Origin: a virus
Taxonomy: Duplodnaviria; Caudoviricetes
Direction: 5' to 3' (one strand)
DNA: 64,000 bases
IMG/VR virus record: IMGVR_UViG_3300017780_003104
Location: 96,001 to 160,000 of that record
Part shown: one piece after another, positions 1,741-63,637 of the stretch
How the letters are laid out: each line of letters begins with the position of its first letter
Position numbering within the stretch: position 1 is the stretch's first letter
Program-made: the position numbers and the translations under genes
The notes under the pieces: generated by a model
What the model was told of the DNA's origin: nothing
Databases searched by the model: none
The model's input: only the letters and a program-made list of their open reading frames with translations

Positions 1741-4164
1741 ATGGCAACTCGCACAATTTTAAGCCCCGGTGTTGAAATATTTGAAAGAGATTTATCTCTA
1801 ATAGCCCCACAAAATGTGGGAACGAATGTATTCATTGCTGGGTATGCAGCACAAGGACCAACTGATGAAGTGATTAAAATCACTACAAGAGCAGATTTGG
1901 ATCAAATTTATGGACCTCCAACTAATAGTGCTGAGAGATACTTTTACCATGGAGTTCGTGAACTTTTAAATTCACCAGCAAATATCTATACTTCAAGACT
2001 TCCATATGGATCTGGAAGTGGTGCTGGATTTGGATCTGAATATTCAGCACTGGTATATCCAGTTCAACACGTTAATGAAACTACTGTTGATAGTCTCAGT
2101 CTTGCTTCTGCATCGTTATCAGCAACTGCAATAGCTAGCTTATCTTCATCTGTTACCTCAGATCTAAATCAACTTTCTGGAACATATGTGCTAGGTGATC
2201 CAGTTCATGTAACACTTAGCGAAACTCAATATCAACTAATCCAAGAAGGTTCTCTATTTACTTGGAGTGCCAGTGCATGTGAACGAAGTCAATTAACAAC
2301 ATTTGATAATCTTGGTAGAGCTGGATTAATTATCCTTAATAAATCCCAAACAACTATCAATAGTCAATTTGAAGGTTATTATATTGGTATTGCTGATAAC
2401 ACTAATATCAACCCAGCATCTAATTATACATCGATTATTGGGGCTAAGACCGTTAGCGTATCTGCTACATATACACCAAACTTTACTAATATTCCTCTTG
2501 GAACTTTCCAATTTAGCTTAACATCTACACCAAATGGTAATTCTGGGAGTATCTCCCAAATCATGGAAAATCTTACGGATTACAACATTGATGGAAGAGA
2601 AGATGATGATTTACTTAACATTGGTATATTCAAACTTCGTAAGAGTTTCTACGCAACAGACGCTTATAAATTAGATTATGTCGTAGATAGTGCTATTGTT
2701 GGATCTATTGATAGCTTCAGAACCCGACCAAATCAATTAGGTGGTCCATTTGTATCATTTTACTTAGAGAATGAAGATAGTAACAATAGAAATGTTGAAG
2801 TCTTGGTTAATCCATATATATCTAATAAGTTTGGATCTACTGCTGTTGGTGTTGATGGAATTCCTAACAAAAAGGTTCGTATATTAACCCATGATTTGGT
2901 TAATGGTGTCAATGCTTTATACACAAACAGTGTTAATAGTTTAACAGCGACCAATCTATATGGTGTTCTTAATCCTCAAGTAGATGTATTAGTATCTAGA
3001 GTTAGTTACGCTGACAATATCTATCCAGTTGGATCATACAGTTCTGGTCAAATTACATCTAAAGTATTAGGATCGATTCCTTCTAAAATTGAGAGAGCAT
3101 TAGAAGCCGTCAAGAATGATGAGATTTATGATATAGATGTTGTCGTTGAAGCTGGTCTTGGAACCATTCATGTCATGACCAATATTCTTGGAACGGAGAA
3201 TCAATCTCTTTCAACTACATACTATGACGATACCAAATTTAGTGATGACTTAAGTAATGCCTTGGATACTATTAGAACCTCAAATCCATTAGATGAAATT
3301 GGTACAGATATTAGAAGTAATTATAGTGTGATTTTTAATGTGTTTGAAAATTTTTGTAATCTTCCATCCAATACTGGTGGTCGTGGTGACTGTATGTTTA
3401 TAGCAGACCCAATTCGTCATATCATGGTAACTGGTAAGAGTAATAAAGTTCTGTCAGATAGATCGAAGAATTTCCAAACTCATATATATTGGGCGATGAG
3501 ACATCAGTTCGAAAATGAAAATACTTCATACGCCGCAACTTATGGTAACTGGGCATTGGTTTATGATGAATTCTTAGGTGATAAAGTGTGGGTTCCATTC
3601 TCTTCAGTTGCTGGTGCAGCTTTTGCTCGTAATGATGCAGCGGAATTCCCATGGTCTGCTCCTGCTGGATACACTAGAGGTCTTGTGAGTGGAACCGTAG
3701 TTGACATTGCAATCACACCTAATCAAAAGCAACGCGATGAACTCTACAAGAGTAACATCAACCCCGTTCTTTTCTCACCATCACAAGGTATGGCAATCTT
3801 TGGTCAAAAGACTATGAGTAGAAAGCCAAGTGCCTTTGATAGAATTAATGTTCGTAGATGTTTCTTAGCTCTAGAACGTCCAACTAAAAAGGCATCTATC
3901 TTCTTCGTATTCGAACCAAACACTGAATATACTAGAACGAGATTTGTCAATACTATTAAACCAATATTTGAATATGCTAAAAATAATCAAGGAGTTTACG
4001 ACTATCTAATTGTTTGTGATGAAAGAAACAACACACCACAAGTTATTGATAGTAATGAGATGAGAGCAGATATTTATATCAAACCAGTTAGAACTGCCGA
4101 GTTTATCTTAGTATCCTTCATTGCAACTCGCACTGATGCGAATTTTGAAGAGTTGATTGGGTGA
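1741..4164 (+). CDS. gp18: Contractile tail sheath protein
   Basis: N-terminal SPGVEIFERDLS; C-terminal PWSAPAGYTRG, QRDELYKSNINPV, FDRINVRRCF and IYIKPVRTAEFI. Confidence 0.95.
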   Translation: MATRTILSPGVEIFERDLSLIAPQNVGTNVFIAGYAAQGPTDEVIKITTRADLDQIYGPPTNSAERYFYHGVRELLNSPANIYTSRLPYGSGSGAGFGSEYSALVYPVQHVNETTVDSLSLASASLSATAIASLSSSVTSDLNQLSGTYVLGDPVHVTLSETQYQLIQEGSLFTWSASACERSQLTTFDNLGRAGLIILNKSQTTINSQFEGYYIGIADNTNINPASNYTSIIGAKTVSVSATYTPNFTNIPLGTFQFSLTSTPNGNSGSISQIMENLTDYNIDGREDDDLLNIGIFKLRKSFYATDAYKLDYVVDSAIVGSIDSFRTRPNQLGGPFVSFYLENEDSNNRNVEVLVNPYISNKFGSTAVGVDGIPNKKVRILTHDLVNGVNALYTNSVNSLTATNLYGVLNPQVDVLVSRVSYADNIYPVGSYSSGQITSKVLGSIPSKIERALEAVKNDEIYDIDVVVEAGLGTIHVMTNILGTENQSLSTTYYDDTKFSDDLSNALDTIRTSNPLDEIGTDIRSNYSVIFNVFENFCNLPSNTGGRGDCMFIADPIRHIMVTGKSNKVLSDRSKNFQTHIYWAMRHQFENENTSYAATYGNWALVYDEFLGDKVWVPFSSVAGAAFARNDAAEFPWSAPAGYTRGLVSGTVVDIAITPNQKQRDELYKSNINPVLFSPSQGMAIFGQKTMSRKPSAFDRINVRRCFLALERPTKKASIFFVFEPNTEYTRTRFVNTIKPIFEYAKNNQGVYDYLIVCDERNNTPQVIDSNEMRADIYIKPVRTAEFILVSFIATRTDANFEELIG

Positions 4165-4835: not shown

Positions 4836-5435
4836 GTGAATCCTAATATTTACGAATTTTTCGCTGCGTTCTCTTATGATCCCAAATTCTATTTACACTT
4901 ACCAGTTCTTTGGACTGTTTCAATTGATGGAGTAACGGAGAGATCAATTAATAATGTTTTACTTGATGCTGGGGAACAATGGATGGCTAAGACAGATCCA
5001 TGGAAAATGTCTAGAAGTGGAAATATATTAGTAGCACAGGAAGTATCACTACCACAAGAATCATCAAATTTCTCAGCATTAGAATTTGGTAGCGGGATGG
5101 GTGGATACTTACCGGGATATGCATTAAATAATAGAACTAATTTTTTAGATAGATCATTTTCAATTAATTTCATTGAAACTGAATTAGACATAGAACATAA
5201 TTTCTTCAGACCATGGTTAATTGCTCTTGGTGTTAAAGGGTTGATAGAATATGGACCATCACTAAAATCTAGTATAGAGATTAAACAATATACCAATGAT
5301 GGAATATTGATACGAGGATTCCGATTTAATAAAGCATTTCCAACTGCAATTGAAGGTTATACCCTTAATTATGAAAATACTGACATTCCAATTAAATCGG
5401 TAACATTTGGTTGTCAGAATTATGAACAAATATGA
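4836..5435 (+). CDS. Tail-tube-family baseplate/tube initiator (gp54-like)
   Basis: Tube-like pattern (FSINFIET..F.RPW...IEIKQY...FPTAIEGYTLNY..VTF); synteny; GTG start 5 nt after TAAATA. Confidence 0.5.
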   Translation: MNPNIYEFFAAFSYDPKFYLHLPVLWTVSIDGVTERSINNVLLDAGEQWMAKTDPWKMSRSGNILVAQEVSLPQESSNFSALEFGSGMGGYLPGYALNNRTNFLDRSFSINFIETELDIEHNFFRPWLIALGVKGLIEYGPSLKSSIEIKQYTNDGILIRGFRFNKAFPTAIEGYTLNYENTDIPIKSVTFGCQNYEQI

Positions 5436-6220
5436 TATTATCAATTCCAAGCTTATCTGAAGAATGTAATATAAACGTATCGGAATTCACATTAGAGGAT
5501 TTCAGGAATATATCATTCCTGATCGAACAGAATAATGATAATGAATTATATAAGTTTCTAATATCTAAAATAGAGACTCCATGCAATGCATATGATAAAT
5601 TCTATGTTCTTTTTAAAATGAGAATATTATTAGTAAATGAAAATATATCATTTAATAATGGAAGAGCTAATATAAAAGTAAATTTAAAATCTTGGGATAA
5701 TACGATTTTAGATAACTATAAAGATATCAAAAAGGATATAATATTTGAGGATTTTATAGCAACAGTGAATTACCCAGAGCATATGATGTACGATAATTAT
5801 GATGATTGTGTAATGGGATGTATTGCAAAAATTTCATATAAAGGTAGAGACATTAAATTCTTCGGATTGGATAAAACTGAAAAGCTTTCAATTTTGGAGA
5901 GAATACCACCATCGTTATATATTTCAATTAAGGACTATATAACTGAACATCGCATGGATAGGTTAATTGTAATGGAGTCTAAATTAGATTTACCAGAAAT
6001 CGATATAAATATTTTCAATAATAATGCATACGAATTATTAAAAATATTATATAATTACTATAAGTATGACGATATATTAGAATTGATATTTATGCTAAGT
6101 CGAAAAATCAATGATATTGGGTATTTGAATAGTAGAAATCCAAGAGATTTGGACCTTTTAATACAAATATATTCAGAAGATGTTGAAAAAACCTCCCATG
6201 ATAGTAAATCATATATATGA
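5432..6220 (+). CDS. Probable baseplate hub assembly protein (gp26/gp51-like)
   Basis: Position in the baseplate block and acidic composition; weak family assignment. Confidence 0.35.
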   Translation: MILSIPSLSEECNINVSEFTLEDFRNISFLIEQNNDNELYKFLISKIETPCNAYDKFYVLFKMRILLVNENISFNNGRANIKVNLKSWDNTILDNYKDIKKDIIFEDFIATVNYPEHMMYDNYDDCVMGCIAKISYKGRDIKFFGLDKTEKLSILERIPPSLYISIKDYITEHRMDRLIVMESKLDLPEIDINIFNNNAYELLKILYNYYKYDDILELIFMLSRKINDIGYLNSRNPRDLDLLIQIYSEDVEKTSHDSKSYI

Positions 6221-52079: not shown

Positions 52080-52105
52080 ACAAAACATCTTTTACATTAT
52101 AAATA

Positions 52106-52420
52106 TCCGGTGTTCGAATCATCGGTCTTGGAAGGCCCGCCTACCTAACAGGGCTGATAGCTTAATGGAAACTAAAAGCGTTATAATGTGAAAACTCAGT
52201 GGATAGGTTGTAACATCCCACTTTTTAAGTAGAAAACAGAAGTGTAAGCTGTAAATGATTCCACAAATATTCTAGATGATAAGTTGTGGATGTGTTCTCA
52301 CCTATTGGCTCATAACTGATAGAACTAGTGGGGTTGGAGTAACGACCAACTACTTAATCTTGTATAGAGAGTAAGAATCTTTTTCATGCGGAGTTTTCGG
52401 TCCCGTTCTTATAACCGATA
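52106..52420 (+). ncRNA. About 310-nt structured RNA upstream of thg1
   Basis: Follows TATAAATA (52098-52105); T-loop hairpin CCGGTG-TTCGAAT-CATCGG; GTTATAA/TTATAAC, TTAAGTAG/CTACTTAA, TCCACAA/TTGTGGA and GTTGG/CCAAC. Confidence 0.6.
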
Positions 52421-52432
52421 CATTTTAATATT

Positions 52433-53230
52433 ATGAATAACAAAGACGGACTAGGAGACAGAATAAAAAATTACGAAAGTATTTCAGAGCATTACTTTCT
52501 ACCAAAGACTCCGATTATTATTCGCGTTGATGGTAAAAGTTTTCATACGTGGACTAAAGGTTGTCAAAGACCTTTCGATCAAACGCTGATCACTTGTATG
52601 TTTGAGTCTGCTAAAGAAGTAGCTAAACAAATGCAAGGTTGTAAAGCTTTGTATGCTCAATCGGATGAAGTAACATTTGTTCTTACTGATGATACTACTC
52701 TTGATTCACAACAATGGTTTGGCGGTAGACAGAACAAGATTGAAAGTGTTACTGCTGCAATGATGACAGCATACTTTAATAAGAATTGGTTACATTCTGT
52801 TCCTAGACATATGGTTGATTATGATTTTCACGTAGATTACACCCCCGCTATCTTTGATGCCCGTGCTTTTCAATGTCCTAAAGATGATGTTGCTAATGTC
52901 TTTCTATGGAGAGTAAAGGATTGGGAACGTAATAGTCTCAATATGTATTGTGAACAGTTCTTCTCTCATAAGGAACTGCAAGGTCAAGGTCGTGCTGATA
53001 GACATGAAATGCTTCATAAGATTGGACATAATTGGGCTACTGAATGCACCGATCAACAAAAGAATGGTTCGTGGTATTCTCCGGGAAAACCTGATAAGTT
53101 CAACCTCACTAATTACTATGATATCGATGATTATATCTTTCGTGACGGTATTGCTTATGTAATGTCAAAGAAGATGCAATCAGAGGATTTAAGTTGGATG
53201 AGTAAAATGATTGTAAAGAGAATGGGTTAA
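52433..53230 (+). CDS. thg1: tRNA-His guanylyltransferase / Thg1-like 3'-5' polymerase
   Basis: RIKNYE, IIRVDGKSFH, YAQSDEV, FDAR and WRVKD.ERNS. Confidence 0.92.
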   Translation: MNNKDGLGDRIKNYESISEHYFLPKTPIIIRVDGKSFHTWTKGCQRPFDQTLITCMFESAKEVAKQMQGCKALYAQSDEVTFVLTDDTTLDSQQWFGGRQNKIESVTAAMMTAYFNKNWLHSVPRHMVDYDFHVDYTPAIFDARAFQCPKDDVANVFLWRVKDWERNSLNMYCEQFFSHKELQGQGRADRHEMLHKIGHNWATECTDQQKNGSWYSPGKPDKFNLTNYYDIDDYIFRDGIAYVMSKKMQSEDLSWMSKMIVKRMG

Positions 53231-54603: not shown

Positions 54604-54673
54604 TTAAAACCGAAATATAATTGCGACATCGAAAGTCGCTTGACAAATCAAAAAACTAAACTAAGATAAACAC

Positions 54674-56329
54674 ATGTTTGAGAATAAAAGAAACGCAGAA
54701 GTCGTGACTGTTAAATCAGTTACTCGTAAGGAAGTTAACGCATTCCTAAACAATGCTAAAGCAGAATCATCCAAGACTCGTTCTGGTAACGGGGCATTGA
54801 AATTCAGTTCAAGTGGTGATTCGTTTACCGATCAGTTTACTAAGGCTGGTAAGTATAAGGAACCTCGTAAGTTCTCTCAAATCGCACAAGATTGTGAAAT
54901 GTTGTGGGGTGAAGACCCTCTCAAGTGTGTGAAGTTCGCATTGTTTCTTCGTACTATTCCTCGCGTAGTTAATCTTCCTGATGGAAGTAAGACTGAACTT
55001 CCTCAAAAGGGAACCGAGTTGAAGCATGAAGCAATTATGCGTATGCTTTGGTTGAGTGATAAGTCTCCTCAAGCATTCTGGAATAACATTCTATTGTTTG
55101 TTTCTCTTGGATCTTGGCACGATGTTTTCACTATGCTTCAATATGATCTTAGCTACAACGGTTGGAATAATCGTAAGCTTGATTGGGATAAGTTTGGTGA
55201 GTTGATTCTTGCTGGTCTTAACAATAAGAACACCTGTGATCTTATTAAGAAGTATCTTCCTCAAATCAAGTCTCGTAGTCAAGCTACGACTATTGATGCT
55301 CAATCCAACAATGCTATTGCTAAGTGGATTTGCTCTCTAGTCTTTGGTAACAAGGAAAGCGCATCTTCATACAAGGCTTATCGTAAGATCAAGACTAGTG
55401 GAACCGCGCATGATTGGCAAAAGCTTATCTCCCAAAAGAGAATGAGTGAATTGGATTTCAATAAAATTCATGGTCGTGCTCTATCAATTCTTGTTAAGAG
55501 TAAGTTCTTAAAGAACCAAGGACTTAGCGATAAGTATGCATCTTGGATTACTGCACCTACCACCAAGGAAGTTAAGTATACTGGATTCGTCCATGAACTC
55601 TTCGAAGGTAACTGGAAGAACGATAAGAACAACGAAGCAACTATCAATAAGCAATTCGATACTCTTGTTCAAAAGGCAAGAACTAATGAAGTTACTGATT
55701 TGATTGTCGTTCGTGATACTTCTGGATCGATGTCTTCAATTTGTCCCGGCACTAAGTCTTCATGTCTTGATGTTGGAAAGGCAATCGCTCTATACTTTAG
55801 TGAATTCCTTCAAGGAACCTTTGCGGGTCATTGGATTGAATTCAACTCTGATGCTAAACTTCAAAAATGGGTTGGTCAAACTCCCGTTGATAAGTGGAAG
55901 AATGATAAGTCAAGCTTTTATGGTGGAACTAACTTTCAAAGTGTTGTTAATCTTCTCGCTAAGATGAAGAAAGAGGGAACACCTGAAAGTGATTTCCCTA
56001 GCGGTATCCTTTGCATTTCCGATGCAGAATTCAATCCTACTTCATTAGGTAAAACTAATGTTGAGACTGCGTTGACTACTCTTCGTAATGCTGGATTCTC
56101 CAAGGCTTATGTTGATAACTTTGTGATTATTCTTTGGAACCTTCAAAATAGTTATTATGGTAAAGGGTCTGGTGAAAAGTTTGAGACTGGTAAAGAAGTA
56201 AACAACGTTTACTATCTGGGTGGGTATAGTGCCTCCGCAGTTAGTTTCCTTTCAGCTAAGATCAAGACAACCTATGATCTAATCAACGAGTGTCTTAATC
56301 AGGAAGTTTTGAATATGGTTGAGATTTAA
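54674..56329 (+). CDS. Ro60/TROVE-like (DUF2828-type) RNA-binding protein with a C-terminal vWA domain
   Basis: Helical N-terminus (KFALFLR, GSWHD, KYLP) and vWA MIDAS elements VVRDTSGSM, GGTNF and ISDAEF; TTGACA-16-TAAGAT-N6-ATG upstream. Confidence 0.72.
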   Translation: MFENKRNAEVVTVKSVTRKEVNAFLNNAKAESSKTRSGNGALKFSSSGDSFTDQFTKAGKYKEPRKFSQIAQDCEMLWGEDPLKCVKFALFLRTIPRVVNLPDGSKTELPQKGTELKHEAIMRMLWLSDKSPQAFWNNILLFVSLGSWHDVFTMLQYDLSYNGWNNRKLDWDKFGELILAGLNNKNTCDLIKKYLPQIKSRSQATTIDAQSNNAIAKWICSLVFGNKESASSYKAYRKIKTSGTAHDWQKLISQKRMSELDFNKIHGRALSILVKSKFLKNQGLSDKYASWITAPTTKEVKYTGFVHELFEGNWKNDKNNEATINKQFDTLVQKARTNEVTDLIVVRDTSGSMSSICPGTKSSCLDVGKAIALYFSEFLQGTFAGHWIEFNSDAKLQKWVGQTPVDKWKNDKSSFYGGTNFQSVVNLLAKMKKEGTPESDFPSGILCISDAEFNPTSLGKTNVETALTTLRNAGFSKAYVDNFVIILWNLQNSYYGKGSGEKFETGKEVNNVYYLGGYSASAVSFLSAKIKTTYDLINECLNQEVLNMVEI

Positions 56330-56918
56330 ATATCTTAAACTTTCTATCTAAAAAGAGAGTGGAGTCTTTGTAAATAAAGTTTCCGATGCGACCAACTTTA
56401 TCTAGAATCAATAGACAAGCCGACTGATTTGGAAAAATTTACAATGACAATAATAACAGCAAAATTAGAAGAGGTTGACAAATCTAAATTTCATGATTAA
56501 ATAAAGATCCGATGAGGTTTCGGTAGCTTCCTATGGCGAACAAATAAAACTACCAATAAGATTGCTTCAGCAAATATATTTTTATTTAAGGAAAAACAAA
56601 AGCAATCTGATAAGAGGACAAACTACAAATACAAAAAATCAAACGTCCTCTGATAAGAATAAGTAACAGCAAAAACAATAAAAAATAAAAGCAAATATGC
56701 TAAACGATGAAAGTCGTCCGGGTATCCTCACCATATTAGAGGTTGTAATATGGAGCTTAGAAGGGAGTCAATCTTAACTTATTCTGATAAAGTCATAAAC
56801 TGCAAATAAAAATACTATTATGCAAAATAGCCTGTCGGTGGGTCCGAGGTAACTAAAACGGTTCGATTCCGTATCTATGACTTGCATAAAATCTCTTCAG
56901 CAAATAACGGAACGTAAA

Positions 56919-56996
56919 ACTCCCATACGTGTGGTTCAAATCCCGCTGCTCACACTTTATTAAAAAGTGGGTATAGCCAAGTGGTAAGGCAGGAGT
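56919..56996 (+). ncRNA. Circularly permuted tRNA-like domain (unit 5)
   Basis: 3' half ACTCC-CATAC-T arm-TGCTCAC precedes 5' half GTGGGTA-TAGCCAAGTGGTAAGGC-A-GGAGT. Confidence 0.8.
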
Positions 56997-57048
56997 CCAA
57001 AAACAATGAGATTTAATAGAAATACTCCAGCAAATAACGCAACAAGGA

Positions 57049-57127
57049 ACCGTGTGTCGAACGTTCGATTCGTTCTCTCCCACCATATAAGTAAAATGGG
57101 AGGTAGCTCAGTTGGTAGAGCAACGGT
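57049..57127 (+). ncRNA. Circularly permuted tRNA-like domain (unit 6)
   Basis: ACCGT-GTGTC-GAACG TTCGATT CGTTC-TCTCCCA-CCA precedes TGGGAGG-TAGCTCAGTTGGTAGAGC-A-ACGGT. Confidence 0.88.
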
Positions 57128-57462
57128 AAGCAAAAAACATAGTATTTCGATAGGATTATATTCAGCAAATATACTACTCAACTGTTAATTGAAAAAAGTA
57201 AAAGTAATCCGATAAGAATTTCAGCAGCATAATATCGTAACTATAACGACTCTAAGGTAGCTTAGGTTTGGGAAACCAATACGGCGATGGTAGATAGGTA
57301 AACTAAGTTCTTTATAGAATATGTAAACCCTACGGGACGAACGATTGAATATTTATATATTCTTTAATGTGTCAGTGAAAGATGAAATTCTGATAAAATT
57401 AGCAACAGCAAACCAAACAAAAATTTGACTTTTAATCAAACAATAAAATGCTAATTTGATAC

Positions 57463-57741
57463 ATGGAAATATTTTATATCATAACACTATCATTCATATT
57501 GAATGTATTATGGTCAATGATGGGTAGAGCTAGAAATAGAAACAACCTCATTTATCATGGTGTATTAGTATTTCTATCAAATCTATTATGGATTCTTTTT
57601 ATGAAAAAGTTAATGACTTCCGATACGGAATCTTTAATATATGGAAGTATTGGTGGGACTATTGGTGCCATTTGTGGACAACCATTATCAATGTTTATTG
57701 AACGTGTGTTGAATGCTAAGAGTGATGATCACATAGAATAA
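57463..57741 (+). CDS. Small membrane protein
   Basis: Three hydrophobic segments; starts 2 nt after the RNA array. Confidence 0.65.
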   Translation: MEIFYIITLSFILNVLWSMMGRARNRNNLIYHGVLVFLSNLLWILFMKKLMTSDTESLIYGSIGGTIGAICGQPLSMFIERVLNAKSDDHIE

Positions 57742-63562: not shown

Positions 63563-63637
63563 GGCATCGTAGCTCAATGGAAGAGCAACACCCTTCTAAG
63601 GTGTGGGTTGAAAGTTCGAGTCTTTCCGGTGTCACCA
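63563..63637 (+). tRNA. tRNA-Arg(UCU) with encoded CCA
   Basis: GGCATCG/CGGTGTC acceptor, GCTC/GAGC D-arm, ACACC-CTTCTAA-GGTGT anticodon arm, GAAAG-TTCGAGT-CTTTC T-arm, ACCA. Confidence 0.95.

Follow-up and report, generated by a model that had tools for sequence, protein, structure and literature searches.

A phage RNA array beside a Ro60-like gene includes a very likely mimic of the tRNA-Lys(UUU) anticodon arm

The window (the whole stretch of 64,000 nucleotides that was analysed) comes from a jumbo phage, whose IMG/VR record is 211,724 bp long and carries direct terminal repeats. The sequencing runs (DNA) that contain the stretch are mostly freshwater metagenomes. The locus consists of a gene for a Ro60-fold protein followed by a non-coding array, of which the last unit (unit 9) is the subject of this analysis. 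The features are as follows.

54640-54667, + strand: candidate sigma-70-like promoter TTGACA-16-TAAGAT upstream of the Ro60-like gene (consensus scan, 10/12 matches)
54674-56329, + strand: gene for the Ro60-fold protein, 551 aa (Pfam DUF7788 vWA domain; DUF2828 family; PHROG 850)
56330-57462, + strand: non-coding array of abutting handle-and-cargo RNA units, filling the 1.13-kb gap between two + strand ORFs
57153-57210, + strand: sister unit with an Asn-type loop, TCAA-CTGTTAA-TTGA at 57178-57192, and a flanking 3-bp helix ACT/AGT
57396-57404, + strand: closing stem of unit 9, 5' strand AAATTAGCA, pairing with 57449-57457; a compensatory change is found in two relatives (L092/L093)
57406-57412, + strand: handle motif CAGCAAA of unit 9; CAGCAA is invariant across the 27 aligned units
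57413-57448, + strand: cargo of unit 9, 36 nt, enclosing the hairpin
57424-57440, + strand: anticodon-arm-like hairpin TTTGA-CTTTTAA-TCAAA, supported by family enrichment, stem covariation and invariant loop positions
57449-57457, + strand: closing stem of unit 9, 3' strand TGCTAATTT, pairing with 57396-57404
57458-57461, + strand: GATA trailer at the end of the array; the following ORF begins at 57463

The 551-aa protein falls in PHROG 850, which is annotated as 'RNA-binding protein', and DUF2828 is also found on some of its homologues. Its AlphaFold model (pLDDT 77.5) was compared with the PDB, and the best 13 matches were all Ro60/TROVE proteins aligned over the full length. These were Thermus phage phiLo Ro60, Xenopus and human Ro60 and Deinococcus Rsr (E 4e-8 to 4e-4, TM 0.40-0.51), with the phiLo protein giving the best matches. 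In contrast, no Ro60 match by sequence was obtained among solved structures with either the protein or a 24-sequence profile as the query. Thus, the designation 'Ro60-like' is supported by the fold and not by the sequence. The scan found no terminator-like site between this gene and the array.

The array units follow a common grammar: GATA, a closing stem of 7-10 bp, 0-3 nt, CAGCAAA, the cargo, the other strand of the closing stem, and GATA(AG). All units are co-oriented with the Ro60-like gene, and the same grammar was observed in the arrays of relatives. CAGCAAA occurs in 7 copies inside 1 kb, against 36 genome-wide on both strands, and no second such array was found elsewhere in the 211.7-kb genome. 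The other cargos of the array are tRNA bodies composed of T arm, acceptor and D arm, without the anticodon arm. A partial Rfam YrlA match (33 bits at 57051-57125) is the only YrlA match in the array. One metatranscriptome run contained exact contigs for 56184-56406 and 56807-57069 and none over unit 9; some DNA may be present in that library, and such contigs cannot reveal transcript ends.

Several other observations were made in the array and its genome. A 156-nt cargo (57229-57384, in the unit with CAGCAGC at 57222), conserved in two relatives (L015 and L092), includes GTAACTATAACGACTCTAAGGTAGC at 57232-57261. The sole BLAST match of this segment in 5426 E. coli genomes was in a 23S rRNA gene (87% over 30 nt), and with E = 7 it is a hint only. 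Metagenome contigs of related strains drop or swap whole units precisely at their borders (56646-56802, 56876, 57122-57236); for example, one loose contig end past 56876 runs on into a different handle unit. These breaks and joins at unit borders indicate that units are gained and lost rapidly, as whole modules.

Among the 22 tRNAs of the phage genome are Lys(UUU), Thr(UGU) and Asn(GUU). A tRNA with a CUA anticodon (amber suppressor-type), labeled tRNA-Pyl by ARAGORN, lies outside the window on the minus strand (G000:C1:196159-196232). The non-coding region 52080-52432, upstream of a Thg1-like gene (52433-53230), has a T-arm-like hairpin (CCGGTG-TTCGAAT-CATCGG, ~52108-52126) and an anticodon-arm-like hairpin (ATTGG-CTCATAA-CTGAT, 52304-52320). 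Neither tRNA finder reported a tRNA in this region.

Unit 9 is 62 nt long and consists of the 9-bp closing stem, CAGCAAA, a cargo tipped by the hairpin, and the GATA trailer. The initial annotation had described a 5-bp stem with a canonical 7-nt loop at 57424-57440, and the sequence reads exactly so. The stem is formed by 57424-57428/57436-57440, and the loop (57429-57435) is C32 U33 U34 U35 U36 A37 A38. The same annotation took the hairpin to be the cargo of unit 9, which is supported by the repeated scaffold and by the Ro60 fold of the neighbouring protein. Its further claim, that the hairpin is the sole structure inside unit 9, was borne out in part: the hairpin is the only helix of the cargo, but a competing pairing exists. 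Single-sequence RNAfold favours this alternative AAAA/UUUU pairing over the hairpin, which is thermodynamically weak or marginal (z-score of the unit, -1.19). RNAalifold alone did not call the inner hairpin. Thus, the fold of unit 9 rests on comparative evidence and not on thermodynamics.

Relatives of the locus were collected through the protein. In total, 1711 homologues of the Ro60-like protein were obtained, including those of Felixounavirus, Listeria P100-like and Campylobacter phages. From these, 75 viral loci were fetched, and handle-and-cargo units lie beside the gene in nearly all of them. No match was found by blastn with the gene plus array against the phage collection. The cultured Leptolyngbya phage Lbo-JY46, whose protein is 43% identical, has five units directly 3' of the gene and carries two Lys-type units.

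A covariance model (R1) was built from 27 units. It gave 221 matches with E <= 0.01 (687 kb, both strands), all on the gene strand, and the best 150 of the 221 come from 68 sources. Unit 9, itself in the seed, scored 63.3 bits, and its orthologue in L092, outside the seed, scored 61.2 bits. The sister unit at 57153-57210 scored 60.1 bits, though it is also in the seed alignment. All seven modelled pairs of the closing stem covary across the family, in which arrays reach about ten units. Unit 9 shares the build of these handle RNAs: a covarying stem of 7-9 bp, 0-3 nt, CAGCAA, a trailer started by G, and the orientation of the gene. Relatives whose protein is 95% identical (L092/L093) retain unit 9: the hairpin is the same, and a C-G pair of the closing stem has become U-A by compensatory change. 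The unit is absent or replaced at 85-87% identity, which argues for rapid turnover of units.

In eight relatives (L018, L019, L030, L033, L034, L041, L042 and L050), a handle copy lies around the start of the Ro60-like gene itself, at about 3499-3565 of these loci. It consists of aAGATGTTtgaCAGCAAA, about 45 nt, and then AACATCTG (AGATGTT...CAGCAA...AACATCTG), and the 5' strand of its closing stem includes the start codon. Model R1 matched six of these eight loci (E 2e-4 to 4e-3). The gene in the window (ATGTTTGAGAAT...) is without such a handle. From the sequences, this arrangement suggests an autoregulatory binding site of the Ro60-like protein. A handle that encloses the start codon of the gene gives indirect support to the handle being the docking site of this protein.

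The loci of relatives hold further RNA elements. In Escherichia phage fjerdesal, a Felixounavirus (L091, MN850605.1), four unannotated CAGCAA-handle units (5216-5282, 5383-5437, 5771-5839 and 5859-5984) lie among annotated tRNA genes, downstream of a 'vWFA protein'. Their stems are of the form AGACC.../...GGTCT, and one of them has a permuted tRNA-like cargo; no Lys-type anticodon-arm unit was found in this phage. A handle unit in L033 (6499-6610) contains a tRNA-like body in normal order without the acceptor stem (Rfam tRNA 52.6 bits, model positions 6-65), and its anticodon arm is CCCAA-TTGATAA-TTGGG (GAU, Ile-type). A full-length tmRNA gene (72 bits) lies directly 3' of the handle array in L047 (6422-6781), and L021 has a Hatchet ribozyme (75 bits) at 890-1040, upstream of its Ro60-like gene.

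To score loops against chance, we took short cargos (<=48 nt) of related phages, 148 distinct sequences at 76 loci, folded each singly and compared them with dinucleotide shuffles. Loops of 7 nt were observed 46 times, against 7.6 +/- 2.6 in the shuffles. CU...AA loops of 7 nt were observed 21 times, against 0.09 (maximum 2 in 200 shuffles), and CU..UAA loops 17 times, against 0.01. The shuffle expectation is thus about 6e-4 CU...AA loops per cargo. The initial annotation had proposed to check whether homologous arrays also carry canonical anticodon loops; in these 148 cargos, YU-NNN-RA loops are strongly enriched over AT-rich chance, an outcome that favours the annotation.

The stem was analyzed in two ways. 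Among 29 sequences chosen by the loop motif alone, stem positions 1-4 are paired in 23-27 of the 29 by AU, UA, GC, CG and GU types, and positions 6-8 are unpaired. In the 27-unit alignment, whose seed units were required to pair at four positions so that the information lies in the variety of pair types alone, two-sided changes occur in all five pairs of the inner helix, 92% of the cells are paired as compared with 24-38% when the partner is slid, and the covariation score is 0.76 as compared with 0.20 in shuffles. Besides CAGCAA, the invariant columns of these 27 units are confined to the 7-nt loop.

In 40 distinct hairpins, U33, U36 and A37 are invariant, C32 is present in 34 and A38 in 33. 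The triplets are UUU (20), UGU (6), CUU (5), GUU (3), CGU (2) and four singletons, so that Lys, Thr or Asn triplets account for 36 of the 40. A is nearly missing from positions 34 and 35 despite the A-rich cargo. As judged from these sequences, the combination of invariant 33, 36 and 37 with variable 34 and 35 is the signature of an anticodon loop. An anticodon-arm unit is present in 44 of 80 sources, including Lbo-JY46, and a Lys-type one in 32 of the 44. In 34 of 50 units, the arm is enclosed by a second covarying 3-bp helix (AAC/GUU, AGC/GCU, AUC/GAU and others). The spacers between helix and arm measure 1-2 nt (5') and 3-5 nt (3'), lengths that we take to match those of position 26 and the variable loop of tRNA. 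Unit 9 is without this second helix, which most class members possess.

A second class of short units has UGG loops (AUUGGUA, UUUUGGU, AUUGG), found in 19 cargos against 1.5 +/- 1.2 in shuffles. Such units were observed in the window (56557-56610) and, among many other loci, at L019:5657-5720, L035:6166-6227 and L044:3136-3198. These loops look like tRNA D-loops, for example AGUGGUA of the phage's own tRNA-Lys.

The unit 9 hairpin was then compared with real tRNAs. It has the form of an anticodon arm: a 5-bp stem, a 7-nt loop, U33, a purine at 37 and the anticodon UUU. The arm of E. coli lysT (GTTGA-CTTTTAA-TCAAT) is identical to it at 15 of 17 bases, and that of the phage's own tRNA-Lys(UUU), encoded outside the window (AGTGA-CTTTTAA-TCACT), at 13 of 17. 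The stems vary across the class; therefore, the loop and the geometry are conserved and not the stem of one tRNA. No tRNA cloverleaf was detected at unit 9 by ARAGORN or by Rfam RF00005, even at E <= 10, and the only tRNA that the two found in the window is tRNA-Arg(tct) at 63563. A BLAST search of unit 9 against E. coli genomes gave no match, the query being too short.

Unit 9 was also compared with Y RNAs. Its gene neighbour has a Ro60 fold and its 5' and 3' ends are paired, as in Y RNAs. No Rfam family matched at unit 9, and YrlA (RF02553) gave no match there at its gathering threshold of 69 bits. The Ro60-binding motif GNCGAA(N)G is absent from the unit, and the conserved motif there is CAGCAAA. 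Another Rfam family, Dictyostelium Class I RNA (RF01414), gave 30.2 bits (E = 0.0026) at 56560-56609, below its gathering score of 41.5. The handle unit at 56560-56609 and this RNA share a short terminal stem followed by UACAGCAA / a (U)ACAGCAA motif. The family did not match at unit 9, and none of 18 related loci reached its gathering score; the assignment was therefore dropped, and the likeness is probably convergence. DUF2828/DUF7788 proteins occur in eukaryotes too.

The recurrence of the module in dozens of related phages argues for a selected tRNA mimic. We conclude that the tip of unit 9 is very likely a selected mimic of an anticodon arm, carried on a handle of the Ro60-partner type.

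As for its function, unit 9 would be one partner ('handle') RNA in an array that serves the Ro60-shaped protein. The 9-bp closing stem and CAGCAAA would form the constant docking part, to which the Ro60-like protein may bind. Within the particle, the arm would be exposed to some host factor that recognises Lys anticodon loops or, with the sister units, those of Thr and Asn. Most likely, this host factor would be a nuclease that cuts anticodon arms as part of an anti-phage system; the unit RNA might inhibit it competitively or serve as a decoy, so that the real tRNA-Lys is spared. By analogy, we favour a nuclease decoy as the leading mechanism for unit 9, and we put it forward tentatively.

A decoy against Lys, Thr and Asn anticodon nucleases is plausible because AriB of the PARIS system cuts exactly those tRNAs. 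Its substrates are, in order, Lys UUU > Thr UGU > Asn GUU > Thr CGU, and its site is U36AAUC|A41 (PMC12409363). The triplets of the unit class are the same set in roughly the same order, and unit 9 contains U36-A-A-U-C-A41, the AriB site reported in that study. However, the cleavage context U39-C40-A41 is kept in just 4 of 53 class members, which argues against the AriB studied in E. coli as the conserved target. AriB also has to contact the D-loop, and an isolated arm has none. The proposal of a decoy specific for AriB is thus weakened on both counts. PrrC, another candidate, is specific for the UUU anticodon, and this specificity leaves the CUU, UGU and GUU sister units unexplained. On sequence grounds, conserved C32, U33, U36, A37 and A38 with variable 34 and 35 would fit nucleases, the t6A machinery and synthetases, and neither PrrC nor AriB is singled out.

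A broader version of the decoy reading, which we consider doubtful as a whole, is that several phage lineages encode a modular decoy particle made of the Ro60-shaped protein and handle RNAs. Each RNA would display one piece of the translation machinery, namely a tRNA body, a Lys, Thr or Asn anticodon arm, a D-loop-like hairpin or a 23S H69-like segment. Together they might soak up or blind the host tRNA and rRNA nucleases of abortive infection, and unit 9 would be the tRNA-Lys(UUU) arm decoy of the particle.

Other explanations of unit 9 were weighed against the nuclease decoy. According to the first, unit 9 is a partner RNA like YrlB or Yrn2, its small U-rich loop tethers the Ro60-like particle to another partner, for instance an exoribonuclease such as PNPase, and the likeness to an anticodon is incidental. 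Bacterial Y RNAs do include hairpins with small pyrimidine-rich loops (PMC4201824), so that the tRNA likeness could be partial convergence. Furthermore, the Ro60 of Thermus phage phiLo assembles together with Yrl RNAs and host PNPase (PMC12135203), and other short units here have different conserved loops, such as the UGG type (19 against 1.5 in shuffles). However, 40 of 40 hairpins have a loop of exactly 7 nt whose second base is U and whose sixth is A, and the variation is restricted to 34 and 35. In addition, the spacers flanking the helix match the spacing of the tRNA core, and the neighbouring cargos are unmistakably derived from tRNA. We regard this explanation as rather unlikely.

The second explanation accepts the arm as a real mimic but makes its target an enzyme of tRNA maturation or charging and not a nuclease. 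Unit 9 would be a substrate, sponge or recruiter for the t6A37 machinery, U34/Q34 modifiers, LysRS, ThrRS or AsnRS, by which translation would be re-tuned or the particle marked as tRNA-like. Positions 33, 36 and 37 do not vary, 32 and 38 hardly do, and 34 and 35 are free, a pattern that fits a reader of the ANN-decoding framework better than a reader of a single anticodon. The conserved positions are also the determinants usually quoted for t6A37 formation. A precedent is the E. coli thrS operator, which copies the tRNA-Thr anticodon arm and binds ThrRS. YrlA Y RNAs, for their part, are known substrates of tRNA modification enzymes (PMC4201824). Against such a target, the Ile, Met, Ser and Arg anticodons share U36-A37 yet are nearly absent from a class in which 36 of 40 hairpins are of the Lys, Thr or Asn type. 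Moreover, the gain for the phage from titrating essential modification enzymes is not obvious. We consider this explanation unlikely.

Finally, it is highly improbable that the hairpin arose by chance in AT-rich sequence, or terminates transcription of the array, and has no specific role: although unit 9 is the last unit before the next ORF and its stem is AU-rich and weak, the shuffle expectation is only about 6e-4 per cargo, and the unit is conserved in relatives, often at array-internal positions. A chance hairpin was rejected by the shuffles, the stem pairing and the covariation, and an intrinsic terminator by the single G-C pair of the stem, the following CAATAAAA without a U-run, and its absence from the terminator scan.

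The two parts of our interpretation therefore carry different weight. Since the loop framework fits modification enzymes and synthetases equally well, and Y RNAs with pyrimidine-rich loops are known, we hold the mimicry of an anticodon arm to be very likely and the nuclease decoy to be the leading but tentative mechanism.

The anticodon arms of tRNA-Lys, tRNA-Thr and tRNA-Asn are prime targets of bacterial anti-phage nucleases, including AriB of PARIS. The known answers of phages to anticodon nucleases are whole replacement tRNAs and RNA repair enzymes. If our interpretation is correct, a stand-alone anticodon arm on a Ro60-partner handle is a third kind of phage answer. The large uncharacterised DUF2828/DUF7788 family would then have a concrete function, and Y-RNA biology would come to include the mimicry of single tRNA arms in addition to that of the tRNA body. 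Ro60 with tRNA-mimicking Y RNAs is already known. We found no description of this protein branch, the CAGCAA handle, the many-unit arrays or the conserved stand-alone anticodon-arm module in Rfam or the searchable literature. DUF2828 has incidental mentions only in the literature, and no earlier description of phage anticodon-stem-loop decoys was found there.

Among known systems, the E. coli thrS operator is, like the hairpin of unit 9, an isolated copy of an anticodon arm. In contrast to unit 9, it is a cis-acting mRNA leader for autoregulation and not a trans RNA on a Ro60-like particle.

The T5 phage variants of tRNA-Lys, tRNA-Thr and tRNA-Asn that neutralise PARIS AriB (PMC11464382, PMC12409363) show the same anticodon set and are likewise a phage-encoded RNA answer. 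The T5 RNAs are complete functional tRNAs, which replace the cleaved ones and escape through changes in the stem, whereas unit 9 is an unchargeable 17-nt arm on a handle.

Escherichia phage Bas63 gp130, a Ro60-like protein, is reported to counter the Ppl defence (PhageMaP preprint, PMC11482910). Judging from the homologues in E. coli Felixounavirus and not from gp130 itself, it probably belongs to the same family as the protein in the window. In Bas63 (Felixounavirus), gp130 lies directly upstream of a tRNA cluster, and the related phage fjerdesal has CAGCAA-handle units among its tRNA genes. Handle RNAs were not described by the authors of the Bas63 work (PMC11482910).

Also close are the bacterial and phage Y RNAs (YrlA, YrlB, Yrn1/2; RF02553). 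In both cases, small RNAs lie by a gene for a Ro60-fold protein, their ends are paired in a closing stem, and several RNAs are present per locus; the Y RNAs of M. smegmatis are processed from one precursor (Chen et al. 2014, PMC4201824). The differences are that the protein here is of the DUF2828/DUF7788 type with no sequence match to solved Ro60, and that the handle is CAGCAAA, whereas Y RNAs have GNCGAA(N)G (PMC4201824). In comparison with YrlA, the isolated anticodon arm of unit 9 is the sole tRNA part that YrlA lacks. The Ro60 of Thermus phage phiLo with Yrl1/Yrl2 (PMC12135203; PDB 9KOP, 9L5Y) is likewise a phage Ro60 with adjacent partner RNAs, and it forms a ring. The phiLo RNAs differ in having a CGAA-motif bulge, in being only two and upstream of the gene, and in that no anticodon-arm mimic has been described for them. 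The authors of that work propose that host RNA enzymes are hijacked for escape from defence (PMC12135203). By analogy, the handle of unit 9 next to a Ro60-fold protein would copy the logic of Ro60/Y RNA particles (PMC4201824, PMC12135203).
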